From the NCBI GenBank assembly GCA_034678605.1, contig JAXDBQ010000032.1:40265-104264 (forward strand): a DNA stretch of 64,000 bases, in the 5' to 3' direction. Each line of letters opens with the position of its first letter. The first letter of the stretch is position 1. The notes below the pieces were generated by a model, which saw only the letters and a list, made by a program, of their open reading frames with translations, was not told the origin of the DNA and ran no database searches. The position numbers and the translations under genes were made by a program. This DNA is from Patescibacteria group bacterium (GTDB lineage Bacteria; Patescibacteriota; Minisyncoccia; Minisyncoccales; UBA5738). Positions 7 through 50,543 of this stretch are shown one piece after another.

Positions 7-1968
7 TTATGAGGGATTTTTTATGGGTTTGGGCTTTTCGCGGGCGACATTGGCCATGGGCTGGTTGGGCGAAGATCGGGCGGGTGCCGGATCTTCGATT
101 GGTTCGCTATAGGGCGATTCGGGCTGGTCGGCGGGCGGTTGGCCGCGGTTTTGATCTTGCCGGCTTTCCGGGGCCGCCGCCGCGGCTCCCTTTTGGATTT
201 CTTCTTTGGCGCGTTTGATCTTGGCGATCTCTTCGGGATTGGTGGTGATGATCTGGTCTTCGATGTAGGAAGACACCACTTTCATGGCCACGTGTTTTTG
301 GCCGGCAAAAAACAATCCCTCCCCGATCTCGGCTTCCAAAAGCATTCCTTTTTCTCTTTCGGTGAGGTTGAAGGTTTTTTGCACCACGTCGATGGTGGCC
401 GGCGATTGTTTCAGCAAGAATTGGATCGAAGAGTTGGTGATGATCGGCTGGCCGTAATTTGAGCGCATAAAGTCGGCCACGTCCTGGGTGATGGTGGTTA
501 CCCCCAGCCAATACTTGCGGGCGCGCTTGCACAGGCCGTACAAAAACGACGCGCCGTCTTCGCTTTGCATCAGCACCCAGGCCTCATCCACCACCAGGAT
601 CCGTTTGCGCAATTTGGAGCGGACTTTGTTCCAAATGTAGTGCATGATAATATACATCGCCGCGGTGCGCAATTCGTTTTCCATGTCGCGGATGCCAAAC
701 ACCACCAGCGGTTTTTCCATGGAAATGTTGGTGGGTTGATTGAAAAATTCGGCATAGGTGCCTTGGGTGAACTTGCGGATCCGGCGCACCAGCGAATCGG
801 TGCCGTCCATGCCTTCCAGCACCGCCTCAAGGTCGCGCATCAGCGGGACGCGTTCGGCCCATAAATTGGGGTCGGTTTCGGGGGTGATGTCTTTGGCGGC
901 ATAGACCTCGGTGAGCGCCCGATCGATGATCGCGTCCTCTTCGGGGGTCATGCCGCCCAAAAGAATGCGCACTAAGCCCACGATATTGATGATGTTGGAC
1001 CGGATCACATCGGCCGGATTTTCGTCTTCCCGTGGGTCGGGCAAGTCAAACGGGTTGATGTGGTAGGCCGACGACAGCGAAACATTCATAAACGATCCTC
1101 CCGTCGCTTCGGCCAAGGTTTTAAATTCGTTTTCCGGGTCAACCACAATGGCGTCCACGCCCAGCATCATGGAACGCAAGATCTCCAATTTCACCGCGTA
1201 GCTTTTTCCCGAACCGGATTTGGCGAAGATCACGCTGTTGGCGTTTTCCAAACTGAACCGGTCGAACAGGATCAGCGAGTTGTTGTGCAGGTTGGTGCCG
1301 TAAAGGATGCCCTCGTTGGCCGAAAGGTCGAACGATACGAATGGAAAGGTTGATGACAGCGGGCTGGTGTTCATCGGCGTGTAGATTTGGATTTTGTCCA
1401 AGGCGTAAGGGCAGGTGGAAATAAATCCTTCCCGTTGCTGGTACATTGCCGGTTTGATATAGACTAATTTTGATTCCAAGATCGAACGCAGGGTGGTTTC
1501 GATGTCGCGCAGTTTTTCGGCGTTATTCTCATAAGCGGTAAGATAGATTCCCAGGCGGAACATCCGTTCGGTGGAAGTTTGCAGTTTGTCGCGCAAGGAC
1601 TCCAAATCTTGGTAGGCGATGTCCAGCGCCGGGTCGCGCACCAGTCCTTTTTCTTCCCGCTCCATGATTTCGGCTTGCACTTCGGTGAGTTTTTTGCGCA
1701 ATTGTTTGAGAGTGGTGCCGGTGTCGATGGGATTGATGTGAAAAGCCACGTCCATGGGCGTGTCGAGATTAATCACCGGCGTGAACCACCCCGAGTTTAA
1801 ATAGCGCGGGTAGGAAAAAATAAAAAACGATTTGCCGAACCGCTCCCCGATCTTGAAGTTGTCGGCCAGCAGGACGACCGACGACGGCGCGATAATGTCG
1901 CGGATATTGATCGTTTTCATTTGCAATTCCTCGCCGGGAATGGATATTTTTTTGCTCTTTTTAACCAT
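7..1968 (-). CDS. virB4: Type IV secretion VirB4/TrbE-like ATPase, C-terminal ATPase portion (N-terminal ~220 aa encoded separately by 2142..2801)
   Basis: ORF 7..2028; Walker A FAKSGSGKSYAV; conserved VirB4 blocks IRDIIAPSS...FSYPRY..GWF and VVDPENEF; stop TAA at 7-9; the first 20 codons of the track ORF read through a palindromic repeat, so start is placed at ATG 1966-1968 (MVKKSKK). Confidence 0.7.
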   Translation of the reverse strand: MVKKSKKISIPGEELQMKTINIRDIIAPSSVVLLADNFKIGERFGKSFFIFSYPRYLNSGWFTPVINLDTPMDVAFHINPIDTGTTLKQLRKKLTEVQAEIMEREEKGLVRDPALDIAYQDLESLRDKLQTSTERMFRLGIYLTAYENNAEKLRDIETTLRSILESKLVYIKPAMYQQREGFISTCPYALDKIQIYTPMNTSPLSSTFPFVSFDLSANEGILYGTNLHNNSLILFDRFSLENANSVIFAKSGSGKSYAVKLEILRSMMLGVDAIVVDPENEFKTLAEATGGSFMNVSLSSAYHINPFDLPDPREDENPADVIRSNIINIVGLVRILLGGMTPEEDAIIDRALTEVYAAKDITPETDPNLWAERVPLMRDLEAVLEGMDGTDSLVRRIRKFTQGTYAEFFNQPTNISMEKPLVVFGIRDMENELRTAAMYIIMHYIWNKVRSKLRKRILVVDEAWVLMQSEDGASFLYGLCKRARKYWLGVTTITQDVADFMRSNYGQPIITNSSIQFLLKQSPATIDVVQKTFNLTEREKGMLLEAEIGEGLFFAGQKHVAMKVVSSYIEDQIITTNPEEIAKIKRAKEEIQKGAAAAAPESRQDQNRGQPPADQPESPYSEPIEDPAPARSSPNQPMANVAREKPKPIKNPS

Positions 1969-2141
1969 ACGATTTAAATTCAAGCACGAAGCACGAATAT
2001 TCGAAATTCGAAACAATATCAAAATCAAAAATTTTCAAAAATCAAAAAACGAGCGTGCATTTTGTTTTGGAAATTATGATTTTGGAAATTTGATATTATT
2101 TCGGATTTCGAAATTCGATATTCGGATTTCCCGAATTTATC
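1969..2141. repeat. Family-1 palindromic intergenic element (cgaatattcgaaattcgaaacaatatc ... cgaaattcgatattcggatttc) lying between the two virB4 fragments
   Basis: Arms are inverted copies of the motif seen at 8 other loci in this window; 173 bp, not a multiple of 3. Confidence 0.65.
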
Positions 2142-2801
2142 CTATTGGATCAATTCGGGCGGGATTTCCGGATAATATCCCCTTTCCGAGTCCTCCAAGT
2201 GATGCGTGCTCCACAAAAATTCGGCGATCTCCAAACTGTTGAGCGGCACGCATTGCAGGCCGCACCGCCGCAGGCCCAAGGCCACGAATTCCATTCGTTG
2301 CAGCAATTGGGATTTTCCCTGGTTGAATTGGTCGGCCGCCGCTTGGGCGATTTTGGCCCGGTCGGCCGGAGACACTTTCCCCTTTTTTGCTCCGGCCGGC
2401 GCCACGCCGGGCAGGATAATCTGTTGAAACGGCACCGTCACATAGAATGATTTGTTCATGATGGTGCCGCCCGAAACGATTTCGTTGATGAAATTGCGGT
2501 ATTCGATGATTTGGGCGCGCAAAAGATCGTTGCTTTGTTTGGCTTCAAGGTCGCTTAATTTGTCCAGATAGCTGGTGATGTTGAGCCGCCGGCTTTGGAT
2601 GGTGATCTGGATGGGAAAATCCATCGAGTTAAGAAAGTTTTGGAACTGGCCGATGACGGCGTTTTGTTCCTCTTCGGCCATGAGCGCGAAATTGATGGAA
2701 TTGACCATCATTATCCCCCGCAGGCCTTTGTTTTTCAAAACCAAAATCCCCTCTTTGATCTGGTCGATTTCCAAAAATTGTTGAGTCGATAGAATTGCCA
2801 T
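2142..2801 (-). CDS. virB4: VirB4 N-terminal domain fragment (split gene or pseudogene)
   Basis: 219 aa; block ILVLKNKGLRGIMMVNSINFALMAEEEQNAVIGQFQNFLNSMDFPIQI matches the conserved N-terminus of Gram-positive/CPR VirB4 (TraE/PrgJ-like); ends 113 bp upstream of the ATPase ORF. Confidence 0.55.
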   Translation of the reverse strand: MAILSTQQFLEIDQIKEGILVLKNKGLRGIMMVNSINFALMAEEEQNAVIGQFQNFLNSMDFPIQITIQSRRLNITSYLDKLSDLEAKQSNDLLRAQIIEYRNFINEIVSGGTIMNKSFYVTVPFQQIILPGVAPAGAKKGKVSPADRAKIAQAAADQFNQGKSQLLQRMEFVALGLRRCGLQCVPLNSLEIAEFLWSTHHLEDSERGYYPEIPPELIQ

Positions 2802-2913
2802 GATAAAAGTTTAAAGCGTAAAGCGCAAAACTTAAAAGAAAAAATGCGGATTATTAAAAGTGTTAAGCGAATTTGTATTTTACTTTACGCTTTTCGCTTT
2901 ACACTTTACGTTT
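2802..2913. repeat. Family-2 A-rich repeat (AAAGCGTAAAGCG / CGCTTTACGCTTT units)
   Basis: gtttaaagcgtaaagcgcaaaac ... ctttacgcttttcgctttacactttacg. Confidence 0.6.
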
Positions 2914-3330
2914 TTAAGCGGTTTCCAACCAGTCGCGGATCTTTTGGACATTGTTTTTGGCGGGGGCGGCGTTGATGGCCACGGTGGTCGGGGCTTTTTG
3001 GAAAACGATCTTTTCTCGCGCCACCACATGCTGGTTGGGGTTTTGAAAGCTTTGCCACAAAAAAATGCGCGGCGCCATTGAAAAAACAAAAAAATGTTGG
3101 ATTACTTTGACAATGTCGATGCCGTCGATCTTCACGAAGGCCAGGGCGCAACAGCCGCCCATGACGATGGCGATCAGCGCCAAGGCCAGCGGCATCACCG
3201 CTTTGCCCAGGGAAAAATAAATGGAAAACGACAGCACCGTGCCCACCGCCACGAACACGAATTGCTTGAAAGTGAGCGGCCCCACCACCTTGGACTCCAT
3301 CTCGATGAATTGCGGAATGGTGAAATTCAT
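2914..3330 (-). CDS. PrgI/VirB3-like small two-TM membrane protein
   Basis: 138 aa, two hydrophobic helices (VFVAVGTVLSFSIYF, LALALIAIVMGGCCALAF), lies immediately upstream of VirB4 as PrgI/VirB3 does in Gram-positive T4SS. Confidence 0.5.
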   Translation of the reverse strand: MNFTIPQFIEMESKVVGPLTFKQFVFVAVGTVLSFSIYFSLGKAVMPLALALIAIVMGGCCALAFVKIDGIDIVKVIQHFFVFSMAPRIFLWQSFQNPNQHVVAREKIVFQKAPTTVAINAAPAKNNVQKIRDWLETA

Positions 3331-3334
3331 AAAA

Positions 3335-3500
3335 GCGTAAAGCGTAAAGTGAAAAGCGCAAAGTAAGAAATACGGGAAGCGTAAAGCGTAAAGTGAAAAG
3401 CGTAAAGTAAGAAATACGGGAAGCGTGAAGCGTAAAAATTAAAGCGTAAAGCAAGAAACGCAAAGCGAAAAACGAAAAGTAAAATGCGGGCGCGAAAGGC
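3335..3500. repeat. Family-2 repeat with 59-bp tandem duplication (gcgtaaagcgtaaagtgaaaagcgYaaagtaagaaatacgggaa x2.3)
   Basis: Direct reading; the 185-aa track ORF 2906..3463 is a translation of this repeat. Confidence 0.7.
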
Positions 3501-3663
3501 GAAAAAATAAAATCACAAATAAGAATACCAAAGTTGGGGCGCGCTATTTTTTGATTTGAATTTATGTTTTGCGCTTTTCGCTTTACGTTTTTATTATATC
3601 ATCGCCCGCCAAAACCGCAAAACCGCCTTGCGGCGGTTGCGAGCGAGAAGCAACGCGGGATCG

Positions 3664-4002
3664 TCAAACCTCAATGCCGAATTTTTTGATTTGCGCCGGC
3701 AAAGAAAACCAGCGGTTGGCAAGGTCATTTTCGCTCAAGAAATGCGGCTCGATCTTTATTTCGATCTCTTTGGCCCACCAAGCGCTGCGGTCGATTTTGG
3801 CGCGGTTGAAATCCTGGCTTGAATCCAAAACCACCGCCACGTCGATGTCGCTGTCGACGCGCGGTTTGCCTTTGGCGTAGGACCCGAACAAGATCATTTG
3901 TTTCACCGGCAGCCCTTCGGCCAGCAGTTTTTGCTTGAATTTATTGACCGCTTTTTTAACTTGGCCGGCGCTTAATTTTTTTCTTATCGCTTTGTTAGCC
4001 AT
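3664..4002 (-). CDS. Minimal nucleotidyltransferase (MNT) antitoxin-type protein
   Basis: GSYAKG....DSDIDVAV nucleotidyltransferase signature; 112 aa; overlaps the HEPN ORF by 19 bp. Confidence 0.8.
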   Translation of the reverse strand: MANKAIRKKLSAGQVKKAVNKFKQKLLAEGLPVKQMILFGSYAKGKPRVDSDIDVAVVLDSSQDFNRAKIDRSAWWAKEIEIKIEPHFLSENDLANRWFSLPAQIKKFGIEV

Positions 4003-4253
4003 GAATAAAATTTATTGATTTTTCCCAGCCAGGCCGCGGCGTATTTGGCGGTGGCGGTTTTGTGGAATTCCATTTTTTCCTCCGGATACCGGCCCTGGAT
4101 GTTGAATTTGTTGACGCTCGCCAAGAATTCCTGCTGATCCGGTTCCAATTGGATTTTGGCCAATCCGGCCAAATACAGCAAATCATGGGAATGGGGCGCG
4201 TGGCTGTCGGTGCTTTTCACGATTATGTGTTTGAAATATTTTTCCAAGGCCAC
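3984..4253 (-). CDS. HEPN domain protein (toxin partner of MNT)
   Basis: HSHDLLYL ... GRYPEE motifs of PF05168-type HEPN; operonic overlap with the MNT gene. Confidence 0.6.
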   Translation of the reverse strand: MALEKYFKHIIVKSTDSHAPHSHDLLYLAGLAKIQLEPDQQEFLASVNKFNIQGRYPEEKMEFHKTATAKYAAAWLGKINKFYSWLTKR

Positions 4254-7690: not shown

Positions 7691-8956
7691 TTATAATCCA
7701 AATAATCCAAGAAGATCTCTAAACGCGCCGATTATATTTTGGCCTGTGTTTTTAATTTTAGTCACTGCGCTTTGCTTTGTTTTATCCTTAACCATAACTC
7801 CGGTGACATATTCAAGATTGTTTTCGCTATATGCCCATTCTAAAAATTCTTTGGAATTTTTATCGCTTGTTTGATTTACGCAATCGTCGCCGGCGCCTCT
7901 GGTGTTATCCAGACAGCGGTTAATTTGGCATCCGCATGCCAAAAATCCGCATCGCTGAAGATCGGAGGTTGGATTGCCTTTTGCGTCCTTCACTTTGCTG
8001 AATGCTTCGTATGATCTTGGCTGGTTAACTGATCCTTGAGGGAAATAAATCCAGTTGCTATTTATCGCGCTGGCATCCATATCCCATGAGCTGCCTGTGA
8101 AATTTGGCTGGCTGTAAAATCTAACAACATCACAACCCATTTCTGGCGCGCCGGAAGTGGCCACGCACATTTTTGGATTTGGCAGACATATCTTTTTCCA
8201 AGTAGTTTTCTCGCCGGTGCTTGGATCGATACCATAATTGCAACCGCAATTCATATTTTGGCAGTCGGTATTTTTAGAACATTCAGCCCAATCCGCATTT
8301 GTACCCGCGGTTACTATTACGCCTTTAGCTAACGTTATTGAATCTGTCCCTTTTTCTATGCAACCGGTATCGTTTCCCCGGCAGCAATACCAATTTTTGG
8401 GAATGCAGGTTTGATCAAAATTTCCAGAAGCATCATTGCAACAATCGATTGCTTGCTCGCACTCTTTGTCTCCGAGCAAGAAATTCCTATTTTGGTTTTG
8501 TGGAATTGATGGCAAGGTTGAAGTTAGTTTGGTGAGATTGGGATTAAGCAAACGGAATATTGCCCAACTTGAAAGCAAAAGCACTAAACCGATGAGCGAT
8601 GATTTGATGCGTTTTTTTGCGTCGTTAACTTTATTCGGGTCAGCAACTGAAGTGATATATTCTACGCCGGCGATGATTAATGCGATAAAAACCGCTAATC
8701 CGCCCAGCCCTATTCCCCAGCCGAAAAAATAGCCCACAAGATCGGCAATCGTAGATTCTGGCTTAAGCTGGTACCCTCCGATTGGCGCATTCGGCCAGTC
8801 AATTTGCAGGGATTTGATCATTGGCTTGGGTGCTATACATTCTGTTTCGGCAAGATTTGCGGACGCAATTGGTATGGCCAAACAAAAACTTGACGCAATA
8901 ATTATTGGTAAGAAAAAAAGTTTGCCGGTATTGTTTTTTTGCTTTGGTTTATCCAT
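7691..8956 (-). CDS. VirB2/TrbC-like (PF18895-type) pilin domain protein with large Cys-rich C-terminal extracellular domain
   Basis: Signal peptide, then two-helix module GYFFGWGIGLGGLAVFIALIIAGVEYITS...KKRIKSSLIGLVLLLSSWAIF; C-terminal 260 aa contain about 22 Cys (CCNDASGNFDQTC, CCRGNDTGC, CQNMNCGCNYG). Confidence 0.5.
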   Translation of the reverse strand: MDKPKQKNNTGKLFFLPIIIASSFCLAIPIASANLAETECIAPKPMIKSLQIDWPNAPIGGYQLKPESTIADLVGYFFGWGIGLGGLAVFIALIIAGVEYITSVADPNKVNDAKKRIKSSLIGLVLLLSSWAIFRLLNPNLTKLTSTLPSIPQNQNRNFLLGDKECEQAIDCCNDASGNFDQTCIPKNWYCCRGNDTGCIEKGTDSITLAKGVIVTAGTNADWAECSKNTDCQNMNCGCNYGIDPSTGEKTTWKKICLPNPKMCVATSGAPEMGCDVVRFYSQPNFTGSSWDMDASAINSNWIYFPQGSVNQPRSYEAFSKVKDAKGNPTSDLQRCGFLACGCQINRCLDNTRGAGDDCVNQTSDKNSKEFLEWAYSENNLEYVTGVMVKDKTKQSAVTKIKNTGQNIIGAFRDLLGLFGL

Positions 8957-9724: not shown

Positions 9725-9960
9725 AGTAGTAAAATCAATATCGAATGTCGAATATCGAAATCCGAAACAATATCGAATATCAAAATTTTCAATATCAAAG
9801 GGAAAACAGGGGGCGAAATTTTATTTGCGAAAATCAAACAGCCAAATCAATATCGAATGTCGAATATCGAAATCCGAAACAATATCGAATATCAAAATTT
9901 TCAATATCAAAACGAAAACGGGATTTTAATTCAATACAATTAACGCAAAATTAACGCGGA
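9725..9960. repeat. Family-1 palindromic element containing an internal 65-bp direct duplication (period about 116 bp)
   Basis: caatatcgaatgtcgaatatcgaaatccgaaacaatatcgaatatcaaaattttcaatatcaaa occurs twice; only 2 long copies, so not CRISPR. Confidence 0.7.
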
Positions 9961-9972
9961 ATCAATACAAAA

Positions 9973-10335
9973 TCAGTCGGATTTTCTGACGATTGAACCA
10001 AAAATTTTCATCAATTCTTCGGCTTCTCGCAAAAGAATATTTTGTTCTTTTGCCAATTCTTGATTATTGCCATTATCGATCAATTTCAACCAATAACAAG
10101 TTTCTTTGGCTTCTTTGCGGCTGATTTTAACGCGCATATTGAAATCTTTTTTGCTCAACGCTTCGTTGGCTTCGATGTAATTGGCCCCGATTGATCCGGA
10201 AGATCGAGCGAGCTGTTTGATGTCTTCCAAATTTGAAACCGTGCGCGGCAATTTTTTCAAAAACAATCTTGTGTTTTTCGCGAACAAATAAGTTCTTTTT
10301 TCCAAGTTGTATGGTTTTGAATTTGTTTCAGTCAT
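9973..10335 (-). CDS. Four-helix-bundle protein (23S rRNA intervening-sequence protein family)
   Basis: GSIGANYIEANEALSKKDF...ISRKEAKETCYWLKL hallmark; 120 aa; flanked on both sides by family-1 repeats. Confidence 0.8.
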   Translation of the reverse strand: MTETNSKPYNLEKRTYLFAKNTRLFLKKLPRTVSNLEDIKQLARSSGSIGANYIEANEALSKKDFNMRVKISRKEAKETCYWLKLIDNGNNQELAKEQNILLREAEELMKIFGSIVRKSD

Positions 10336-10395
10336 TTGATATTTGAAAATTCGATATTGTTTCGATATTCGAAATTCGATATTCGGATTTGTGTT
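10336..10395. repeat. Family-1 repeat fragment
   Basis: aaaattcgatattgtttcgatattcgaaattcgatattcggattt. Confidence 0.6.
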
Positions 10396-12924
10396 TTAGA
10401 TTTGCCACCATGTTCCCGAGTAGCCGAACAGCGACAGGAATACGCCCACGATCAGCCAGGCAAAGAACAGCAGGCCGTAGCCGATGCCGATTAGTTTCCA
10501 CCAGGAGATGACTTTTTGCTTTAAATCGGGCGTGGAAAAATTGGTGAAAAATATTCCGGCGGTGGCAAGCCCCAAAATGGGCAAAAGCCAAAACGACATT
10601 TGGAACAAGAATAAATTAATGATCTGCATCGCGTTGAGCAAAAGGTGCTTTGCGCCGCATTTTTCGCGGTCATCCCATTCGGTGTTGGGGTTGTCGTTGG
10701 TCATGCCGCACACGGCCATCACTGCCTGCCCTTTTTTGATTTCTTGGCCGCCGGCCACAAAATCAAAGCTCCAAATTTCGGGCGTGGCGCCCGCGTCTTT
10801 GCATTGCGCGTCCAAGCAGGCCAGCACGCTCCATTGGTATTTGCCCAAGCAGAACATCTGGTCGATGTCGTTGTCCACCATTATCGAAGTGTCTTTGACG
10901 ATCTTTTCCACTTTGGGCCCGGGAGCGCAATCTTTATTGGTTTCCTTTTCCGAAACCTCTTTGTATTCCAAGGCGACTTTGTAATAATGCGCGCCGGCCA
11001 CCGGCTGCCACGATAGGTTGTAAGCGATTTGGCTGTTGTCCAGCGTGCTGCTGGCATTGGCCGGCGTTTTGGAGGCACCCAGGGCCGCGGTGGCAAACGA
11101 AAATTCCGGGCCGGCCGGGCCGCAAAGCGCGGCGCTGGCGTCGGCGCAGGTTTGCACTTTCCATTTATAGGATTGTTTTTGGTTGATGGTCGGATAGTCC
11201 AGGGTGTATTGGTTGGTAGCAGTTGTGATCTTTTGGCCGCCAAAATCCAAAATATAGGCCTTGGCGCCGGCAACCGCTTCCCATTGCAATTCAACCGGCA
11301 TGGCTACATCTTTGGCATTGTTGGTCGGTTGCATGGACGCGGTTTTGGGCGCGCGGCCGGTGGTGCGAAAATACCACCAGTCCGACCACGGCTCGTTGCA
11401 CACCTCGCCCACCGGAATTGCCGGCCAGCAGGACTTGGCGCGCCATTTGTAGGCCGTGTCCAATTCCAGTTCGATGTTTTGTTCTTCGCCTTTGGAATTA
11501 TTGGCGTTGCCTTTGGTGAAAAGCACTTGCGAAGTGGTCACGCGGCGTTCGCCGTTGACCAATGAGGTCGCGCCGGCGCCGGAAATTTTTTGAATGTCAT
11601 AGCCATAGGAATTGGCGCCGTTGGGCGCTTGCCATTGCAGGCGGCCGGGAAGTTCGGTGAGCTTGGCGTTTTGGTTGTCGGCATAATTGTTGTCGTTTCC
11701 CGGCGACAAAAGCGCGGGCGCGGGAACGGTTTCGTTTTTATCGGTGAAGGTCCACAACTGCCCCCAATATTTGTCGCTTTGGGTGTTGCAGTTTTCGTCG
11801 CCGGCATTGGTATTGTTGAAACAGCGCCGCAATTGCCAGTAATAGGTGTTGTTTTTGGTGAACAGCGCCCGGTCGGTGTTGGGCAATTGAAGGTGCGACC
11901 ACCAATAGCAATCGATAGCGGGGTTGTTGGCCAAGCATTTAACGTTTCTTGGGGTTTTGGCCTTGATGGGATTGACTACGTCGGCCTTGCAGGTGTTGTT
12001 GGTTTGTTTTTCCAGATAATGGCAGGCCAGCGGGTTTTTCAGCGCCGGCGTGTCTTTTTTGAGCCAATTGGCCAAGTCGCTGAATTTGGCCGGGATTTGC
12101 GCGCCGGTGAGCACCAATTGGTTTTCGTTGGTGTAGACGCGCATTTGGTATGACAGCGAATAGGGCTCGTTTTCGTTATAGGGCTGTTTTTCTTTTGAGA
12201 CCTGCGCGTGGCACCAATCCAGCCGCAGGTTTTTGTAGGAAATATTTTTGGCGCCGGCCGGGCCGTTCCAATCGGGATCGTCAAAATTTATCGGTTCGGG
12301 CGCCGGGCTGGTGCGAAAGGTCCACCAAGTGGCGTTTTCTTCGGGCTGGCAATAGGAGCCGTTTTCCTTGCAACACGGCCGCACGCGCCAACGGATGGTT
12401 TTGTCGGAGTTGTAAAAGCAGGGGTAATACAAATCCCGAGCGTTGAACTCGTTGGTGGTGAGGATTCGGCGGAAAATGCCGCCTTTGCTTTCGTCGTCGT
12501 TTAGTTCGCCGTTTTTGTTTTCGATCTCCAAAAGATAGGAGCGCGCGCCATAGGCCTTGGAGGTGGCGGCTTGGTTGCCCTGGCGGCCGTCCCATTCCCA
12601 ATGGTATTGGCCGTTTTCCAATTGCCACAAGGCGATGTGATCCCAGGCCAGCACCACCGGCAAAGTAACTTCGTTTTCGTTGGCTTGTTTGGTTTTGTTC
12701 ACCGGATCATCCAAGTAATAATGGCCGGGCGGGGTTTTTAAACAAGCGTTGGCGCAAATGCAGGTGGTCACGTCAACTTCCACCACATTGGTCATGGATT
12801 GTTTTTGTTCGGGCTGGCATTGAATGCCGCCGGCGATTGTGGCGCCGCAACCGCTTTCGGCGATCGCCGCCGCCGGCGCGATCAACGCCAGCGCCAGCGC
12901 GAGTTTGAAAAAATTGGTTTTCAT
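10396..12924 (-). CDS. Giant secreted surface protein: signal peptide, tandem FN3-like disulfide-containing repeats, C-terminal VirB2/TrbC-like two-TM pilin domain
   Basis: 842 aa; signal MKTNFFKLALALALIAPAAAIA; about 6 repeats with Y.W.V..C....C....W.F.T signature; C-terminus LLPILGLATAGIFF...KLIGIGYGLLFFAWLIVGVF is paralogous to the C-terminus of 13136..16084. Confidence 0.7.
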   Translation of the reverse strand: MKTNFFKLALALALIAPAAAIAESGCGATIAGGIQCQPEQKQSMTNVVEVDVTTCICANACLKTPPGHYYLDDPVNKTKQANENEVTLPVVLAWDHIALWQLENGQYHWEWDGRQGNQAATSKAYGARSYLLEIENKNGELNDDESKGGIFRRILTTNEFNARDLYYPCFYNSDKTIRWRVRPCCKENGSYCQPEENATWWTFRTSPAPEPINFDDPDWNGPAGAKNISYKNLRLDWCHAQVSKEKQPYNENEPYSLSYQMRVYTNENQLVLTGAQIPAKFSDLANWLKKDTPALKNPLACHYLEKQTNNTCKADVVNPIKAKTPRNVKCLANNPAIDCYWWSHLQLPNTDRALFTKNNTYYWQLRRCFNNTNAGDENCNTQSDKYWGQLWTFTDKNETVPAPALLSPGNDNNYADNQNAKLTELPGRLQWQAPNGANSYGYDIQKISGAGATSLVNGERRVTTSQVLFTKGNANNSKGEEQNIELELDTAYKWRAKSCWPAIPVGEVCNEPWSDWWYFRTTGRAPKTASMQPTNNAKDVAMPVELQWEAVAGAKAYILDFGGQKITTATNQYTLDYPTINQKQSYKWKVQTCADASAALCGPAGPEFSFATAALGASKTPANASSTLDNSQIAYNLSWQPVAGAHYYKVALEYKEVSEKETNKDCAPGPKVEKIVKDTSIMVDNDIDQMFCLGKYQWSVLACLDAQCKDAGATPEIWSFDFVAGGQEIKKGQAVMAVCGMTNDNPNTEWDDREKCGAKHLLLNAMQIINLFLFQMSFWLLPILGLATAGIFFTNFSTPDLKQKVISWWKLIGIGYGLLFFAWLIVGVFLSLFGYSGTWWQI

Positions 12925-18204: not shown

Positions 18205-18414
18205 GGAATGTTCGAATATCGAAATCCGAATGTTCGAAATAAGCACAAATTTTCTCCGCCAAAGGACGGATCCGCCTCCGGCGGAAAATTTAAAATATCA
18301 AAACAAAAATAAGAATTTATTTTGAACTTTTGAAAATTTGAATTTCGATATTGTTTCGATATTTGAGATTCGATATTCGGATTTCCAGTTTAAAACCGCC
18401 GTTATTCGGCGGTT
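18205..18414. repeat. Family-1 composite palindromic element with central ccgccaaaggacggatccgcctccggcggaaaat core
   Basis: Left arm cgaatatcgaaatccgaat, right arm tttcgatattgtttcgatatttgagattcgatattcggattt. Confidence 0.65.
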
Positions 18415-19938
18415 TTAAACTGGTTCGGCGGGTCGATACGCCAGCGCTTCGGAGACATGGTTTAATCGGATTTCCTCGGAACCGTCCAGATCGGCGATGG
18501 TGCGGCTCACTTTCAGCACCCGGTGGTAGCCGCGGGCCGATATTTTAGCCGAATCCACGGCATTTTTGAGCAGCCGCTGGGACGCGTCGTCGGTTTGGCA
18601 GTATTGTTTTATTTGAGCGATGTCCATTTCCGAATTGGTTTGGCCGTTGCCGAAGCGCCGTTGTTGGATTTGCCGGCAAAGCCGCACCTTATCTTTAACT
18701 TGATCGCTGGTGGTTTTGATTTCAACATCGCGGCCGGCTAACTTTTCGTATTTTATCGCCGGAACATTAATGAAAAGATCGATCCGGTCCATCAGCGGCC
18801 CGGAAAGTTTTTTGCGATACATTCGAATTTGCGATTGCGAACAAACGCAGATTTTTTCCGGATTGCCGAAGTTGCCGCACGGGCAAGGATTCGAGGCGAT
18901 TACCAAGGTGAAGCGCGCCGGCAGAGACAGGGTGTTTTTCGCCCGCGCGATATTGATCGCGCCTTCTTCTATCGGTTGGCGCATTGCTTCCAGGGTGTCG
19001 CGATGGAATTCGGGAAATTCGTCCAAAAATAATATTCCCCGATGGGCAAGGGTGATTTCCCCCGGCCGGGGCGGATTGCCGCCGCCGATGAGCGCGGCGT
19101 CGGAGGTGGTGTGGTGCGGGGCGCGAAACGGCCGCCGCGAGATTAAAATTTGGTCGTTGAGCAAGCCGCAAACGCTGTAAATTTTTGTGACCTCCAATGA
19201 TTCTTCGAAAGAAAGTTCGGGCAGGATTGTGGGCAAAGTTTTAGCCAGCAAGGTCTTGCCGGTGCCGGGAGGCCCCCACATCGAAAGATTATGGCCGCCG
19301 CCGGCCACGATTTCAAGCGCCCGCTTTGCCGACTCTTGGCCGGAGATCAATCCCAAATCGTTTCCCCTTTCGTTTTTTTGAGAAATTGGTCGCGAATCGG
19401 CGGTTGCCGGCTCGATGACGATTTTGCCTTCCAAAAAATCAACGGCTTGCTTTAATGTTTCCACGCCGATGGCGCGCACTCCGGCAATCAGGCCGGCTTC
19501 GGCGGCGTTTTCTCGGGGAAGGATAATCTCTTTGATCCCCTTCTGCCGGCAAGCGATCGCGAAACAAACCGCGCCTTTCGCGGGCCGAAGGCGGCCGTCA
19601 AGCGCCAGTTCCCCCAAAAAAATGCGATCGGCCGGATCGAAATTGGTTTTTTTGCTTGCCGCCAGATAACCAAGAGCAATCGGCAGATCATAGAGCGCGC
19701 CTTCTTTTTTAAGATCGGCGGGCGCCAGCGAAACCAGCACTTTTACCGGTTCATGGTGCGGCGGTTTGAATCCGGCGCTTTCGATGGCCGTGCTCACTCT
19801 TTCTTTGGCTTCCTGAACGGCTTTATCGGGCAAGCCGACAATGTCAAACCGCCGCAAACCATAAGAGGCGTCAACTTCGACTTCGATGATTTGGGCATCC
19901 AGGCCGGTGATCGCCGCGGAAAATATTTTGGAAAGCAT
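18415..19938 (-). CDS. comM: YifB/ComM family Mg-chelatase-like AAA+ ATPase
   Basis: 507 aa; N-terminal Lon-like domain, Walker A GPPGTGKT; ChlI-type C-terminus. Confidence 0.9.
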   Translation of the reverse strand: MLSKIFSAAITGLDAQIIEVEVDASYGLRRFDIVGLPDKAVQEAKERVSTAIESAGFKPPHHEPVKVLVSLAPADLKKEGALYDLPIALGYLAASKKTNFDPADRIFLGELALDGRLRPAKGAVCFAIACRQKGIKEIILPRENAAEAGLIAGVRAIGVETLKQAVDFLEGKIVIEPATADSRPISQKNERGNDLGLISGQESAKRALEIVAGGGHNLSMWGPPGTGKTLLAKTLPTILPELSFEESLEVTKIYSVCGLLNDQILISRRPFRAPHHTTSDAALIGGGNPPRPGEITLAHRGILFLDEFPEFHRDTLEAMRQPIEEGAINIARAKNTLSLPARFTLVIASNPCPCGNFGNPEKICVCSQSQIRMYRKKLSGPLMDRIDLFINVPAIKYEKLAGRDVEIKTTSDQVKDKVRLCRQIQQRRFGNGQTNSEMDIAQIKQYCQTDDASQRLLKNAVDSAKISARGYHRVLKVSRTIADLDGSEEIRLNHVSEALAYRPAEPV

Positions 19939-20016
19939 GGAAGCGTAAAGCGTGAAGCGAAAAATACGGCGCCGCGTTTTTGTTTTATGTTTTACGTTTT
20001 TAGTTTCGCGCTTTTT
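19939..20016. repeat. Family-2 repeat (ggaagcgtaaagcgtgaagcgaaaaatacgg ... tttacgtttttagtttcgcg)
   Basis: Direct reading. Confidence 0.55.
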
Positions 20017-20424
20017 TTACTTTTGGCAGTCAACGCAAAACCGAGCTTCGGGAAATATTTCCAGCCTTTGGCGCGGAATATTTTGGCCGCATTTTTCGCA
20101 TTTGCCGTAATCGCCTTTTTCGATTTTAGCAAGGGCCGCGTTGATGGCGGCAAGCTTTTCTTCGTGCTGGCGTTCTTCGGCCAAGCGCGTGGCGTATTCT
20201 TCGACCTCGTCGGCCTGCCGTTCAAGAGAAGCGGTGCCGGAATCGCCATTGCCGTACGGGAACTTGCTTTGCCAGTCCCCCGGGACGCTTTTGTTGGGAA
20301 CCGCGATTTTCGACAGTTCGGATTCGATCGCTTTTCGATCGGCTTCAAGTTTTTTTGAAATCTCTTTAAGATTATTTTCGTTTCGCGTTGTCCTGTTCAT
20401 GTTCTTTTTAAAATTATTAAGCAA
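20017..20424 (-). CDS. DksA/TraR family C4-type zinc-finger protein
   Basis: CEKCGQNIPRQRLEIFPEARFCVDCQ C4 finger after a coiled-coil region. Confidence 0.7.
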   Translation of the reverse strand: MLNNFKKNMNRTTRNENNLKEISKKLEADRKAIESELSKIAVPNKSVPGDWQSKFPYGNGDSGTASLERQADEVEEYATRLAEERQHEEKLAAINAALAKIEKGDYGKCEKCGQNIPRQRLEIFPEARFCVDCQK

Positions 20425-23739: not shown

Positions 23740-25845
23740 TCAGTTGTTTTTGATGTCTTTTAAAGACAAATTTATTCGTCCTTGTTGGTCGATTTCCACC
23801 ACTTTCACCGCCACCATATCGCCGATATGGACAACATCTTCCACTTTATTAACGCGCCGGTCGGCCAATTTTGATATATGGATCATGCCTTCCTGTCCGG
23901 GGAGGATTTCCACGAACGCGCCGAAATTCATTATTCGTTTGACTTTGCCCTGGAATATTTCCCCCACTTTTACCTCGCGGGTGATGTTTTGGATCCATTC
24001 CACGGCTTTTTTGCCGGCTTCGGGTTTTTCGGCGGTGACAAAGATTGTGCCGTCTTCTTCGATATCGATTAAAACGCCGGTGTTCTCGATAATTTCGTTG
24101 ATTACTTTTCCTCCGGGCCCGATAACTTCGCGGATTTTTTCCGGGTTTATTTTGATGATGATAATGCGAGGGGCGTAGGGAGATAATTCCGGCCGCGGCG
24201 AACTCAATGTGCCTTCGATCACATCCAATATTTGGTGGCGCGCTTTTTTACCCTGCTCCAAGGCGTCGGCCATCATTTTTTCGGTGATGCCGTCGATTTT
24301 AACATCCATTTGGATGGCATTGATGCCTTTACGGGTGCCGGCCACTTTGAAATCCATATCGCCGTGATGATCTTCGGGGCCTTGAATGTCGGTGAGAATT
24401 TTATAGTTGTTCAATCCTTTCGCGATCATTCCCATTGAAATACCGGTCGCGGGCGCTTTGATGGGCACGCCGGCATCCATAAGCGCCAAGGTCGCGGCCG
24501 ACAAGGCGGCCATCGAAGTTGACCCGTTGGAGGAAACGATTTCGGAAGTTACCCTGATAGTGTAAGGAAAATCCTCCACCGACGGAATAAGCGGCAAAAG
24601 CGTTTTTTCGGCCAGCATTCCGTGTCCGATTTCCCGGCGGCCGGGCGCGCGCAAAAATCGCACTTCCCCGCAGGAATAGGGCGGAAAGTTGTAATGATGC
24701 AAAAATCGTTTCTTGCCGGTGATTTCCATTCCGTCCAGCAGTTGCTGATCGCCGGGCGCGCCCAATGTGGCGGTGGAGAGCGCCTTGGTTTCGCCTCTTT
24801 GAAAAAGACCGGAGCCATGGGTGCGCGGGATGATTGCCACGCGCGCGCTCAACGATCGCAATTGGTCGGTGGTTCGCCCGTCGGGCCGCAAACCGGTCGC
24901 CAGCACCGTTTCGTGCAAGACATTATCGATTTCTTTTTCAAAAAAGTTTTTCGCGAATTTCATTCTTTCCGAATCTTGCGGGTAAGTCAAATTGACGAAT
25001 TCTTCAATTTTTAATTTGGCCGCGTCCATCGCTTCTTGGCGGGCGGTTTTTTCTTTTTGGTACAAGGCGTTTTTTAAATCGCTTCCCAATTGAGCGCGCA
25101 ATTCATTTTCATAATCTTTGCCGAAAGCCGGTTCCTTGAGCGCCATTTTGGTTTTTCCGGCAGTTTTGGCGATTTCCAATTGAAAATCGATCAGTTGCTT
25201 GATATAAGGTTTAGCGAAACGAAACGCGCCCAAAATCATTTCTTCTCGGGCTTCGTCAAATCCCCCTTCGATCATATTGGCGATTACCTCTCCGTCGCGG
25301 ATAATTCCCGCGAAAACCACATCCATGCCGCTTTTCGCTCTTTGTTCGTAGGTTGGGTTTAAAATATAATTACCTTCCAAAAAGCCCACGCGCACCGACG
25401 CGGCCGGTCCGTTCCATGGAATATCCGACACCGTAAGCGAGCAAGAAATGCCAAACATGCTCAAGATGTCGGGCTCGTTTTCGGCGTCCCAAGACAACAC
25501 CGTGGCGATGGTTTGAACTTCGTTTTTGAGCCGATCATCGAAAAGCGGCCGGATTGCCCGGTCGATCTGGCGTGCGTTGCAAACCGCCTCATCGCTCGGG
25601 CGGGTTTCGCGCTTGATAAACCGCGGTCCCTTGATCTTTCCGGCGGCATAGTATTTTTCTTCGTAATCCACCATCAACGGGAAAAATCCCATATCGGGTT
25701 TTTCTTTTTTTGCCATCACCGCGGTGGTGAGCACCATTGTATCGCCATAGCGCACGAGCGCCGATCCGTTGGCTTGTTGGGCCAGTCCATTGATCTCAAC
25801 GGACAATTCTTTGTTCCCGAGCGTTAGGGAAAACTTGTTTTCCAT
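23740..25845 (-). CDS. pnp: Polyribonucleotide nucleotidyltransferase (PNPase)
   Basis: 701 aa; two RNase PH domains, KH and S1 domains (GQEGMIHISKLADRRV...). Confidence 0.95.
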   Translation of the reverse strand: MENKFSLTLGNKELSVEINGLAQQANGSALVRYGDTMVLTTAVMAKKEKPDMGFFPLMVDYEEKYYAAGKIKGPRFIKRETRPSDEAVCNARQIDRAIRPLFDDRLKNEVQTIATVLSWDAENEPDILSMFGISCSLTVSDIPWNGPAASVRVGFLEGNYILNPTYEQRAKSGMDVVFAGIIRDGEVIANMIEGGFDEAREEMILGAFRFAKPYIKQLIDFQLEIAKTAGKTKMALKEPAFGKDYENELRAQLGSDLKNALYQKEKTARQEAMDAAKLKIEEFVNLTYPQDSERMKFAKNFFEKEIDNVLHETVLATGLRPDGRTTDQLRSLSARVAIIPRTHGSGLFQRGETKALSTATLGAPGDQQLLDGMEITGKKRFLHHYNFPPYSCGEVRFLRAPGRREIGHGMLAEKTLLPLIPSVEDFPYTIRVTSEIVSSNGSTSMAALSAATLALMDAGVPIKAPATGISMGMIAKGLNNYKILTDIQGPEDHHGDMDFKVAGTRKGINAIQMDVKIDGITEKMMADALEQGKKARHQILDVIEGTLSSPRPELSPYAPRIIIIKINPEKIREVIGPGGKVINEIIENTGVLIDIEEDGTIFVTAEKPEAGKKAVEWIQNITREVKVGEIFQGKVKRIMNFGAFVEILPGQEGMIHISKLADRRVNKVEDVVHIGDMVAVKVVEIDQQGRINLSLKDIKNN

Positions 25846-26005
25846 GAATTTTTAAAATTCGAATATCGAATTTCGAATATCGAAACAAGGTTCAAATTTT
25901 CAAAATTCAAATGTCAAAAACAAAAACTTGTTTCGAACATTTGATCATTTGAAAATTCTGATTTGTTTCGAATTTCGATATTCGTGCTTCGAATTTGTTT
26001 TAAAA
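25846..26005. repeat. Family-1 palindromic element
   Basis: ttcgaatatcgaatttcgaatatcgaaacaagg ... ttgtttcgaatttcgatattcgtgcttcgaa. Confidence 0.65.
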
Positions 26006-26503
26006 TTATTTGCTCATTAAAAATTTGGCCGGTTCTTTTTCCATGTCGATGAATTCATCGGCGATTTCTTTTAATTTTGACGACGCCGAACGCCCAAAAG
26101 CGATGATTTCCACCCGTTTGCCCTGGTTTTCAAGGTATTCCACCAATTGCTGGAAGTCGCCGTCGCCCGAAGCCAAAACGATCGTGTCCACCGAGGGGCT
26201 GATGCGAATCGCGTCCACGGTGATCCCCACATCCCAATCGGCTTTTTTGAGGCCGTCGAAATATTCCTGCAGGTCGCGGATGCGAGTTTCAATCCCCAGC
26301 TTGACCAGCGCCTCGAAAAAAGGTTTTTCTTCGCCGGTTTTGGTGCGCACCACATAGGCGAACGCCCGAATCAAATTGCGGCGGCCCACGGCGGATTTTA
26401 ACACTTCTCGAAAGTTCACGCGCGCCTGGTAAAGGTTGCGCGCCGAATAATAAAGATTTTGCACGTCGATTAGAACGGCAACTCTTTGAGCGTTTAATTG
26501 CAT
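26006..26503 (-). CDS. NYN/LabA-like domain protein
   Basis: VLIDVQNLYYS ... DVGITVDAI ... LASGDGDFQQLVEYL. Confidence 0.8.
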   Translation of the reverse strand: MQLNAQRVAVLIDVQNLYYSARNLYQARVNFREVLKSAVGRRNLIRAFAYVVRTKTGEEKPFFEALVKLGIETRIRDLQEYFDGLKKADWDVGITVDAIRISPSVDTIVLASGDGDFQQLVEYLENQGKRVEIIAFGRSASSKLKEIADEFIDMEKEPAKFLMSK

Positions 26504-26811: not shown

Positions 26812-26879
26812 TTTTTTGTATTTTATTATTTTCTGCGGAAAATAAAATTATTGAATTTTTAATTTTGAATTTTGTATTT

Positions 26880-26917
26880 TCTCATTACTCATCAACTCAT
26901 TACTCATCAACTATCCC
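26880..26917. repeat. Family-3 tRNA-associated TCATCAACTCAT tandem motif
   Basis: ctcattactcatcaactcattactcatcaactatccc abutting tRNA-Lys. Confidence 0.6.
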
Positions 26918-27518: not shown

Positions 27519-27574
27519 CAACGGCCGATAATCACGATCACATTATACCAAAGAATTGAAAAAAAGCAAATATT

Positions 27575-27645
27575 GCGATATAAAAGAAAGCGTAAAGCGT
27601 AAAGTGAAAAGCGCAAAGTGAAAAAATTAAAGCAAGAATAATTAT
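27575..27645. repeat. Family-2 repeat in divergent promoter region (aaagcgtaaagcgtaaagtgaaaagcgcaaagtgaaaaaattaaagc)
   Basis: Direct reading. Confidence 0.6.
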
Positions 27646-37345: not shown

Positions 37346-37520
37346 CGAAATAAATCCGAATATCGAATATCGAAATCCGAAACAATATCAAATGACCTAA
37401 ATTAAAATGATCAAAACATGGTTCTTGGCTTGTTTTGTTTTTTTAGATTTTTGAGATTTTGAAATTGTTTCGATATTCGGATTTCGATATTTGGATTTTT
37501 TTGATATTTAATCTTATGCT
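37346..37520. repeat. Family-1 palindromic element
   Basis: ccgaatatcgaatatcgaaatccgaaacaatatcaaat ... ttgtttcgatattcggatttcgatatttggattt. Confidence 0.65.
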
Positions 37521-37554: not shown

Positions 37555-37626
37555 AATCGATAAAGTCGCGAGCGTTAAAGGCATTTTTATTTTGCGCTTT
37601 ACGCTTTGCGCTTTACGTTTAATTTT
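37555..37626. repeat. Family-2 repeat (tttgcgctttacgctttgcgctttacgttt) upstream of SPFH gene
   Basis: Direct reading. Confidence 0.55.
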
Positions 37627-46209: not shown

Positions 46210-46293
46210 TTTACTGCTTGGTGCCCGGGGTGGGACTTGAACCCACATGAGTTGCCTCGCAACATTTTAAGTGTTGTGCGTATGCCGGTTTCG
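46209..46293 (-). tRNA. tRNA-Leu (anticodon UAA), CCA encoded
   Basis: GCCCGGGTGGCGAAACCGGCATACGCACAACACTTAAAATGTTGCGAGGCAACTCATGTGGGTTCAAGTCCCACCCCGGGCACCA; long variable arm. Confidence 0.85.
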
Positions 46294-46337
46294 CCACCCG
46301 GGCGGGATGGCAATTTTTACTTTTTAACTTTCAGTTT

Positions 46338-46412
46338 TTAACTTTCGTGGAGGCCGCAGTGAGAATCGCACTCACGTATAACAGTTTTGCAGACTGTCGC
46401 CTTACTACTTGG
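46338..46412 (-). tRNA. tRNA-Cys (anticodon GCA), CCA encoded
   Basis: GGCCGCATAGCCAAGTAGTAAGGCGACAGTCTGCAAAACTGTTATACGTGAGTGCGATTCTCACTGCGGCCTCCA. Confidence 0.85.
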
Positions 46413-46465
46413 CTATGCGGCCGGGAATAGTTGATGAGTTGATGAGTTGATGAGTTGATGAGGGA
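46413..46465. repeat. Family-3 tandem repeat (AGTTGATG)x4 directly upstream of tRNA-Cys
   Basis: gggaatagttgatgagttgatgagttgatgagttgatgagggatgagtaaaa. Confidence 0.65.
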
Positions 46466-46487
46466 TGAGTAAAATTCTAATGCAAAT

Positions 46488-46826: not shown

Positions 46827-46980
46827 CTTGGATGCAAATTCGAATGTTCGAATATTCGAAATCCGAAACAATTTTCAAATTCTCAAAATTTTAATTTTCG
46901 AAAAAGAGTCCGTTTAAAAATTTGAACATTTGAAAATTTGGATTTGTTTCGAATATTCGGATATTCGTGCTTCGGATATT
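46827..46980. repeat. Family-1 palindromic element between infB and rbfA
   Basis: aaattcgaatgttcgaatattcgaaatccgaaacaatt ... ttgtttcgaatattcggatattcgtgcttcgg. Confidence 0.65.
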
Positions 46981-48477: not shown

Positions 48478-48618
48478 CAGAATTAAATTCGAATATCGAA
48501 TATCGAAATCCGAAACAATATCGAAATTTAAATTTCCAAAACAAAAATTCGAGTTTCGTTTTGGTCATTTGGATTTTGAAAATTCGTGCTTGTTTCGAGT
48601 TTCGACATTCGAGCTTCG
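48478..48618. repeat. Family-1 palindromic element
   Basis: aaattcgaatatcgaatatcgaaatccgaaacaatatcgaaattt ... gtttcgagtttcgacattcgagcttcg. Confidence 0.65.
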
Positions 48619-48987
48619 TTATTTATGTTTTTCTTGGGCGAGTTCGATTGCTTTCTTTTCTTCTTCGGAAAGGGGATAAGTGGAGGCGCCGTTTTCCACC
48701 GGTTTGGCATAGACGCGGTTGCCGTCGCGGGAAAACAAGCTGGTGACTACCGCGCCGTTGCCGTTGCCGTCAAGCATTGCCAAACAAAAACTTTGATTGC
48801 CGCCAAAACCTTCGAATGGGTTAAAGCGGGTGACCGCCACCCGGCTGATATGCTTTTTGTTTTCTTTTTTCAGCGATTTCACTTCCTCGGCCAAGGATTC
48901 GCATTTTTCTTTCACCTCTTTAAACTGCGCCAAGATCTCGGAAATATCCTGCGGCTCTTCATCTTGTTTTTTTTGGAAAAAAGACAT
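48619..48987 (-). CDS. DUF4446-like small protein
   Basis: Track ORF 48619..49278 extends over tRNA-Ser and repeats; plausible start MSFFQKKQ at about 48987; conserved RVAVTRFNPFEGFGGNQSFCLAMLDGNGNGAVV. Confidence 0.55.
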   Translation of the reverse strand: MSFFQKKQDEEPQDISEILAQFKEVKEKCESLAEEVKSLKKENKKHISRVAVTRFNPFEGFGGNQSFCLAMLDGNGNGAVVTSLFSRDGNRVYAKPVENGASTYPLSEEEKKAIELAQEKHK

Positions 48988-48994
48988 CGGGTAG

Positions 48995-49176
48995 TTGATT
49001 AGTTGATGAGTTATGAGTTGATGAGTAAAATGCGAATTCGGAGTTTTTGAATTTTTCTCATTTCTCATCAACTCATTACTCATTTCTATTTCGGGCGGTG
49101 CCCGGTAGTAGATTTTCGGCCGGATTTTTAGCAAAAAATCCGTAATCGCCAAGCGAGCCGAAAATTCACTACCGGG
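48995..49176. repeat. Composite repeat: inverted family-3 TGATGAGT arrays (about 48995..49090) plus family-4 palindrome (49091..49176)
   Basis: agttgatgagttatgagttgatgagt...actcatcaactcattactcat; then cccggtagtagattttcggc-ccggatttttagcaaaaaatccg-taatcgccaagcgagccgaaaattcactaccggg. Confidence 0.65.
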
Positions 49177-49839: not shown

Positions 49840-49913
49840 TGGACGATACAGGATTCGAACCTGTGGCCTACTCGGTGTAAACGAGTCGCTCTGGCCGGCT
49901 GAGCTAATCGTCC
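49840..49913 (-). tRNA. tRNA-Val (anticodon UAC)
   Basis: GGACGATTAGCTCAGCCGGCCAGAGCGACTCGTTTACACCGAGTAGGCCACAGGTTCGAATCCTGTATCGTCCA. Confidence 0.85.
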
Positions 49914-50010
49914 AAGAGTAGTTGATGAGTGATGAGTTGATGAGTGGTGAGCAAATACGAAATCCCGTATTTTCTCATCAACTCATTTCTCATAAACTCA
50001 TCAACTATTC
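49914..50010. repeat. Family-3 inverted TGATGAGT/ACTCATCA arrays between tRNA-Val and tRNA-Leu
   Basis: gagtagttgatgagtgatgagttgatgagtggtgagc ... ctcatcaactcatttctcataaactcatcaactattctc. Confidence 0.65.
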
Positions 50011-50014
50011 TCGG

Positions 50015-50098
50015 TGCCCGGGGCGAGATTTGAACTCGCACGGGGGTGAACCCACTAGCACCTCAAGCTAGCTTGTCTGCCGATTCCAACACCCGGGC
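50015..50098 (-). tRNA. tRNA-Leu (anticodon GAG)
   Basis: GCCCGGGTGTTGGAATCGGCAGACAAGCTAGCTTGAGGTGCTAGTGGGTTCACCCCCGTGCGAGTTCAAATCTCGCCCCGGGCA; resembles E. coli tRNA-Leu; upstream hairpin atcccgcc-ag-ggcgggat. Confidence 0.8.
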
Positions 50099-50174
50099 AA
50101 ATCCCGCCAGGGCGGGATAGCAGATAGTCAATAGTTGATAGTTTATCGGAAAACGATAAAAAAGCAAGAAGCGG

Positions 50175-50543
50175 TTAGGCCTCTTGCTTTGGTTTCGGTT
50201 CCACTCTTTTCAGGCGCGATTTGCGGCCTTTGGCGGTGCGGATATAGAAGATCTTGGCGCGGCGGACTTTGCCCACTTTAATCACTTCGATCCGGTCGAT
50301 GATGGGCGAGTGGATCGGGAAGATTTTTTCCACGCCCACGCCCGAGGCGATCTTGCGCACCGTGATGGCCGCGCCGGTTTCGTTGCCGTGCTTGCGGCAC
50401 AGCACCAGACCCTCAAACATCTGGATTTTGTCCTTGCCTTTGTCTTTATATTTTTGATAGACGCGCACGGTATCGCCGGCCTTGATGGCGGGCAGGTCGG
50501 TTTTCTTGACGGCTTGCGCGAACTCTTCGATTTGCTTTTCCAT
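50175..50543 (-). CDS. rplS: 50S ribosomal protein L19
   Basis: 122 aa; IEVIKVGKVRRAKIFYIR, GDTVRVYQKYKDKGKDKIQMFEGLV. Confidence 0.95.
   Translation of the reverse strand: MEKQIEEFAQAVKKTDLPAIKAGDTVRVYQKYKDKGKDKIQMFEGLVLCRKHGNETGAAITVRKIASGVGVEKIFPIHSPIIDRIEVIKVGKVRRAKIFYIRTAKGRKSRLKRVEPKPKQEA

Follow-up and report, generated by a model that had tools for sequence, protein, structure and literature searches.

A predicted type IV secretion locus in the genome of a Patescibacteria group bacterium raises a simple question: has its VirB4 ATPase been broken in two by a repeat, or has it always been made in two pieces? In the 64,000-nucleotide stretch of DNA analysed here (the window), VirB4 is divided between two open reading frames (ORFs) on the minus strand, and the 173 bp that separate them are a copy of a palindromic repeat found elsewhere in the window. 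The first-pass annotation had drawn two possibilities from this coincidence: either a MITE-like insertion had disrupted virB4, leaving a pseudogene or a two-polypeptide enzyme, or a VirB4 made in two pieces is natural to the organism. The evidence set out below argues for the second of these, and very probably the locus holds an ancestral two-gene VirB4 within a standard CPR type IV secretion system (T4SS), the element being a later arrival in a pre-existing spacer.

The two open reading frames

The upstream ORF (2142..2801, minus strand) encodes 219 aa and ends in a TAG stop. Its earlier description as the N-terminal region of VirB4 followed by a stop holds, coordinates included, with NCBIfam and fold comparison both pointing to a TrsD-like, or 'TraC-like', stand-alone VirB4 N-terminal module. 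The NCBIfam matches are weak and collinear (CD1110 model 2-120, VirB4_CagE 18-161, TrsD 26-69), the TrsD match (NF041427) reaching E 2.6e-5 and 24 bits against a family cut-off of 200 bits. PF26593 (TraC-like) is recorded in the precomputed annotation of P0001, a protein 100% identical to this ORF, and of all 120 best homologues; hmmscan against a local copy of Pfam-A, from which the PF26593 model is probably absent, returned no family. Against PDB sequences, neither phmmer nor hmmsearch with a profile built from 20 sequences gave a significant match, so that the link to canonical VirB4 rests on fused relatives, the weak NCBIfam matches and the fold. An AlphaFold2 model of the protein (pLDDT 75.8), compared with the PDB by Foldseek, recovered TrwK/VirB4 of R388 as every one of its top 14 hits, at probability 1.00, TM ~0.5 and ~210 aligned columns, with probabilities of 0.21 or less beyond them. 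Taken together, the fused relatives, the weak family matches and a moderately good fold match identify the protein as a homologue of the N-terminal ~200 residues of VirB4. Its best 120 homologues (57-100% identity) are all stand-alone proteins of 184-232 aa, and among the 150 best cluster representatives (50% identity) only two reach VirB4 length (P0229, 797 aa; P0254, 898 aa); in three inspected homologues of 400 aa or more, the extra length consists of low-complexity tails. A 13-nt inverted repeat (CCCGAATTTATCC / GGATCAATTCGGG, 92% complementary) at 2130-2159 of the window spans the trsD-like stop codon, such that the final trsD-like codons pair with the first bases of the spacer.

The downstream ORF, in its longest mechanical form (7..2028), opens with a TTG at 2028, and it is of this form that the second ORF can be said to begin 113 bp past the stop of the first. 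The suspicion that the N-terminal extension so obtained is spurious proved correct: it is read from the AT-rich repeat, and the true start is the ATG at 1968..1966 (MVKKSKKISIPGEELQMKT...), which yields a protein of 653 aa (7..1968, minus strand) with a basic leader, MVKKSKKISIPGEELQ, ahead of MKTINIRD. Relatives keep this leader as M..KK.KK...PGQELQ. A start at ATG 1920 (MKT...), as called for this gene in an independent ENA assembly (L001), was considered and rejected, since the leader is conserved and the 'MKT' methionine is an isoleucine in two relatives (L005 and L089), where MKT therefore cannot be the start.

This second protein comprises the rest of the N-terminal region, a P-loop ATPase domain and a low-complexity tail. 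It matches NCBIfam NF045971 (VirB4-like conjugal transfer ATPase, CD1110 family) at 362.3 bits (cut-off 325; E 5e-108), carries the Pfam domains P-loop_TraG, AAA_10 and DUF87, and in PDB searches is similar to the VirB4 C-terminal domain of 4AG5 (E 3e-43) and to the ATPase domain of TrwK; its Walker A (AKSGSGKS, [AG]x4GK[ST]) and Walker B (ILVVDE) motifs are both intact. It spans positions 170-733 only of the CD1110 model, positions 2-120 lying on the separate upstream ORF, and, judged from sequence, the VirB4 enzyme is complete only as the pair. In comparisons with four relatives, with and without the element, dN/dS is 0.08-0.14 for the N-terminal ORF and 0.03-0.12 for the C-terminal ORF, values at which neither can be regarded as a pseudogene; neither an intact fused orthologue (0/85 loci) nor any relaxation of selection was found.

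The ATPase tail (~70 aa; window 7-200, minus strand) is low in complexity and rich in proline, alanine and glutamine, with a local GC of 0.56. Measured from the MKT-equivalent residue, the ATPase is 578-666 aa long in close relatives. In the complete Nealsonbacteria genome L006 (CP179887.1, 4661-8437) the virB4 ATPase gene encodes 1,258 aa and contains an intein, with Intein_splicing and LAGLIDADG homing-endonuclease domains, and the trsD-like gene is still separate, upstream.

The same locus in relatives

A scan of species-representative genomes gave 80 loci, to which seven metagenome loci were added; both parts of VirB4 are present in 85 of them (78 GTDB species genomes and seven metagenome contigs), the remaining two running off their contigs. 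The groups surveyed were Nealsonbacteria, Staskawiczbacteria, Gribaldobacteria, Moranbacteria and other Paceibacteria-type CPR. Without exception, the N- and C-terminal parts are separate ORFs (85/85, none fused) in mixed relative frames, and the order prgI/virB3, separate trsD-like gene, virB4 is shared by the window and all 85 loci, with a median of 70 nt from the N-terminal stop to the MKT-equivalent residue.

Measured instead from the N-terminal stop to the ATG of the conserved leader, the spacer is 6 nt in L007 (65% N-ORF identity to the window), 21 nt in L006 (60%; the complete genome, 689 kb) and 43 nt in L005 (78%), none of which has a palindrome at this site; it is 127 nt in L002 (82%), where the palindrome is degraded, and 172 nt in L088 (84%), 173 nt in the window and 215 nt in L089 (86%), where it is present. 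The copy in the L090 spacer is also degraded, and the left arms can be aligned at the site across the window, L088, L089, L002 and L090. Relatives that lack the element are split at the same residue position as the window. Related genomes with and without the element thus agree in keeping the ~215-aa and ~640-aa proteins separate, and the split in all 85 loci, the element-free spacers of 6-43 nt and the strong purifying selection on both ORFs together indicate that the split long predates the repeat.

Alignment to an intact homologue bears on the junction itself. The concatenated N- and C-terminal proteins and the fused P0229 of Colwellbacteria (797 aa) form one gap-poor BLASTP alignment (6-792 versus 8-796, 49% identity), and a single full-length alignment of this kind means that no residues are missing at the junction. 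The upstream ORF is collinear with residues 8-~210 of P0229, and the stop/start junction falls in a linker of that protein; in P0254 the linker is ~100 aa of low-complexity sequence.

Larger distances between the two genes also occur. In L056, L062, L065 and L070 the trsD-like gene and virB4 lie 0.5-1.75 kb apart, and in L090 a gene at 3708-3962, after the trsD-like gene and before the contig end, resembles by eye the 23S-rRNA-intervening-sequence family; these gaps and this gene show that the trsD-like/virB4 spacer tolerates large insertions.

The palindromic element

As had been recognised at the outset, the intervening 173 bp (1969..2141, a length not divisible by 3) are one copy of a repeat, here called family 1 (inverted repeat I1 and others): a long imperfect hairpin, the arms of which look to be made of degenerate CGAAnnn heptamers, extending to a few bases short of the virB4 ATG. 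Its predicted RNA fold has an energy of -50.9 kcal/mol (z = -4.8 versus shuffles). A blastn search of the window located the family at eight more places (9730-9927, 10322-10396, 18285-18394, 25844-26006, 37352-37498, 46832-46977, 48485-48619 and 53063-53241), with 63-83% identity and E-values of 1e-9 to 1e-24, so that 64 kb contain nine in all, and each copy is an imperfect palindrome over nearly its full length. On a mechanical ORF map all nine fall between ORFs, with neighbours that are co-oriented, convergent or divergent, and often only a few bases of spacer are left between the element and the ORFs on either side. The presence of an element exactly at the split is explained by this habit, because family 1 sits between ORFs at all nine places: the element is where it is because the spacer was already there, and the spacer is not due to the element. 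Family 1 resembles a MITE in having multiple dispersed copies with inverted-repeat ends, and in its presence/absence polymorphism at the trsD-like/virB4 spacer among relatives. In the relatives with an empty site (N-ORF identity 78% or below), the spacer sequence appears too diverged to fix the point of insertion.

Searches for a role gave the following. Rfam at the gathering threshold, applied to the whole window, reported tRNAs only (nine), the element matching no family; a scan of 1700-3700 for promoter and terminator consensus sequences placed none in the spacer and gave no more matches than shuffles did; and the spacer 1969..2141 holds no terminator-like U-tract above chance. In a test for selection on the hairpin, arm complementarity within copies (~72%) was not above identity between copies (~74%), and the L088 copy (74% identity) is no closer than are the paralogues within the window. 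No structural conservation is therefore claimed, and, as the L088 copy is no closer than the paralogues, the element may have inserted at the same spacer independently. Two family-1 copies (18205-18414 and 53063-53247) enclose a nested GC-rich palindrome (CCGCC..GGCGG type) within the AT-rich hairpin, and the L089 copy in the trsD-like/virB4 spacer has a different nested palindrome; it seems that family-1 elements either are composite or serve as targets for each other.

Alternative explanations and proposed mechanism

Insertion of a MITE-like element into an intact virB4, with a pseudogene or an accidental two-piece enzyme as its outcome, would account for an element that fills the gap exactly, has a length that is not a multiple of 3 and provides the start of the longest form of the second ORF. 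It is contradicted by the split in all 85 loci, those with element-free spacers of 6-43 nt included, by the fact that nothing is missing or duplicated at the junction with respect to P0229, by dN/dS of 0.03-0.14 and by the C-terminal ORF having its own conserved start and leader peptide, and this half of the original proposal can be given almost no credence. Since AT-rich palindromic repeats are difficult to assemble, the break might instead be an artefact of sequencing or assembling repeat-rich DNA, the gene being really continuous. However, the independent assembly L001 is base-identical over the 221 nt from the N-terminal stop to the MKT codon, its identical spacer excluding an assembly error; a second NCBI contig encodes an identical 219-aa protein; and the positions of the N-ORF stop and the C-ORF start are conserved in all relatives, so that an artefact is improbable in the extreme. 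The very stable hairpin between the ORFs and the existence of fused relatives could suggest, alternatively, that the two are joined at expression into a full-length VirB4, whether the ribosome reads through the stop codon, shifts frame or bypasses the hairpin. Such joining is hardly believable given relative frames that vary from locus to locus, spacers of anything between 6 and over 1,700 nt, sometimes with room for another gene, a TGA that (on our own reading of the sequence) the N-terminal frame meets within the element once past its TAG, and element-free relatives that are still split with no hairpin at all.

A different possibility accepts the ancestral split and supposes that the element has since been co-opted, its mRNA hairpin tuning the ratio of TrsD-like protein to ATPase. 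In support of this, the element is kept at the spacer in lineages dS ~1 apart (L088 and L089, with degraded copies in L002 and L090), and the hairpin ends a few bases from the virB4 ATG. Against it, the spacer has no terminator-like U-tract or promoter consensus above chance, family 1 occupies spacers of every gene orientation, and the figures of ~72% for arm complementarity and ~74% for copy identity, with an L088 copy no closer than paralogues, give no sign of site-specific constraint. Co-option is accordingly unlikely, as are the routes by which it might act (the hairpin could partly terminate transcription, be a site of processing, act as a stability element or occlude the start of virB4), and any function for the element is speculative and doubtful. 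Also unlikely is the compound proposal that the palindromic elements form a class of structured spacer repeat not yet described in Paceibacteria-type CPR genomes and that the virB4 copy has been co-opted as a stoichiometry-setting mRNA hairpin; if true, a hairpin would set the ratio between the two parts of a secretion ATPase, and the Patescibacterial counterpart of that enzyme is known to be essential.

The reading preferred here, an ancestral two-gene VirB4 with a later element, can be set out as a mechanism. The locus is very probably a standard type IV secretion locus of the Paceibacteria-type Patescibacteria (CPR), composed of prgI/virB3-like, trsD-like and virB4 genes, in which VirB4 is in all likelihood made, as it was ancestrally, in the form of two polypeptides. 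The 219-aa TrsD-like protein corresponds to approximately the first 200 residues of canonical VirB4, and the 653-aa protein to the remainder with the ATPase domain, with the break placed in a variable, often low-complexity linker. By analogy with R388 structures, and with the VirB3-VirB4 literature cited in PMC12102498, the two proteins may assemble non-covalently, and the TrsD-like module may tether the hexameric ATPase to PrgI/VirB3 in the membrane, in the manner of the covalent N-terminus of R388 TrwK. The element very probably expanded a spacer of 6-43 nt to one of 127-215 nt in a sub-lineage with at least 82% N-ORF identity, leaving both reading frames untouched, and any effect it has would be expected to come about through the mRNA, where it may form a hairpin separating two co-oriented genes. 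The timing of its arrival is one that we infer from the sequences of a handful of relatives.

Comparison with known systems

The staphylococcal plasmids pGO1 and pSK41 (MPF_FATA) encode TrsD/TrsE (TraD/TraE), in which a small VirB4-N-like protein lies upstream of a shortened VirB4 ATPase. The window likewise has a small VirB4-N-like protein; its NCBIfam match to TrsD is far below cut-off (24 versus 200 bits), and its locus is chromosomal, the examined stretch showing no conjugative-plasmid mark. Among Bacillota, the Pontibacillus sp. ALD_SL1 plasmid NZ_CP062975.1 encodes a 274-aa hypothetical protein that is homologous to the N-terminal ORF (E 1e-20; 27% identity across 93% of the query), and next to it a 621-aa protein annotated as 'VirB4-like conjugal transfer ATPase, CD1110 family'; the split is as here, but the pair overlaps by 11 nt, with neither spacer nor repeat. 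On the Leifsonia plasmid NZ_CP065038.1 a fused CD1110-family VirB4 of 773 aa follows prgI. Single-chain VirB4 proteins (R388 TrwK, PDB 7O41/8RTB; Leifsonia; P0229 and P0254) are collinear with the N- and C-terminal pair over their full length, and differ in being one polypeptide where the window has two.

As for the element, REP/BIME, ERIC and the Correia and RUP MITEs are short dispersed hairpin-forming intergenic elements that also occur between co-oriented genes. Family 1 shares with them its short length, dispersal, hairpin-forming capacity and position between genes; no sequence relationship to them was found, and its arms look to be of degenerate CGAAnnn heptamers. A literature search on palindromic intergenic repeats in CPR brought up only unrelated papers, and searches on split VirB4 and on TrsD+TrsE+VirB4 brought up no match.

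From the T4SS of TrsD plus VirB4 described in Patescibacteria by Quinonero-Coronel et al. (2025, PMC12102498), the locus shows no difference in kind: the gene set and order are the same, pilin-domain proteins lie nearby and a stand-alone TrsD-like gene adjoins virB4. [quoted passage not shown] The paper also lists the TrsD homologue of Ca. Southlakia epibionticum as essential and places Patescibacteria T4SS often near the replication origin, a position with which the yidC, rnpA and rpmH genes found beside the locus in relatives are in keeping. The alternative that the first-pass annotation had left standing, a VirB4 naturally made in two pieces, is supported by separate ORFs in 85 of 85 loci and by TrsD and VirB4 as published in PMC12102498.

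The two-gene architecture of VirB4 is already published. What the window and its close relatives add is a palindromic repeat in the trsD-like/virB4 spacer, of which term searches of PMC12102498 brought up no mention; only this repeat-enlarged spacer in one sub-lineage is new here, a minor point, and the repeat families are uncharacterised. For annotation, the locus carries a caution: a short VirB4 that follows a 'hypothetical protein' of ~215 aa represents the enzyme in its normal two-gene form, both in Patescibacteria and in some Bacillota, and is not to be flagged as a pseudogene, even where a repeat lies between the genes. The two-piece architecture also marks a natural domain boundary of VirB4, already in the literature, that could be used for structural and biochemical dissection.

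Neighbouring genes and further repeats

The trio prgI, trsD-like, virB4 begins with a PrgI/VirB3-like small membrane protein of 138 aa (2914..3330, minus strand; Pfam PF12666 PrgI, E 9.5e-12), and prgI is also found upstream of the N-terminal module in relatives L002-L007 and L088-L090. The 112 bp that separate prgI from the trsD-like gene (2802..2913) contain a palindrome of a second family, with AAAGCGT heptamers (repeats D2/D8/D14) and a predicted RNA fold of -23.3 kcal/mol (z = -2.4); this second family occupies the spacer upstream of prgI as well (~3331-3600), in the same operon. A 421-aa protein with a T4SS pilin domain (7691..8956, minus strand; Pfam PF18895 T4SS_pilin, E 3.8e-10) belongs to the secretion-system neighbourhood, and in L006 a T4SS_pilin gene follows virB4.

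At least two further repeat families are present in spacers of the window (2802-2913, 3331-3600, 19921-20023, 26854-26914, 27568-27635, 37579-37623, 46441-46478, 48997-49090, 49913-50015, 50701-50738 and 51166-51248), and they have no Rfam match. One is of AAAGCGT-type heptamers; another, made of GATGAGTT-type units, is apparently clustered near tRNA genes. Their arms, like those of family 1, look like strings of degenerate units of 7-8 nt, each arm mirroring the other. The nine tRNAs that Rfam reports in the window include clusters at 46222-46422 and 49840-51035, and direct-repeat family D13 consists of three adjacent tRNA genes. Upstream of prgI, two overlapping small ORFs of 112 and 89 aa lie at 3664-4253 on the minus strand, and the equivalent position in L089 is taken by a HEPN and nucleotidyltransferase pair, a toxin-antitoxin-like module.
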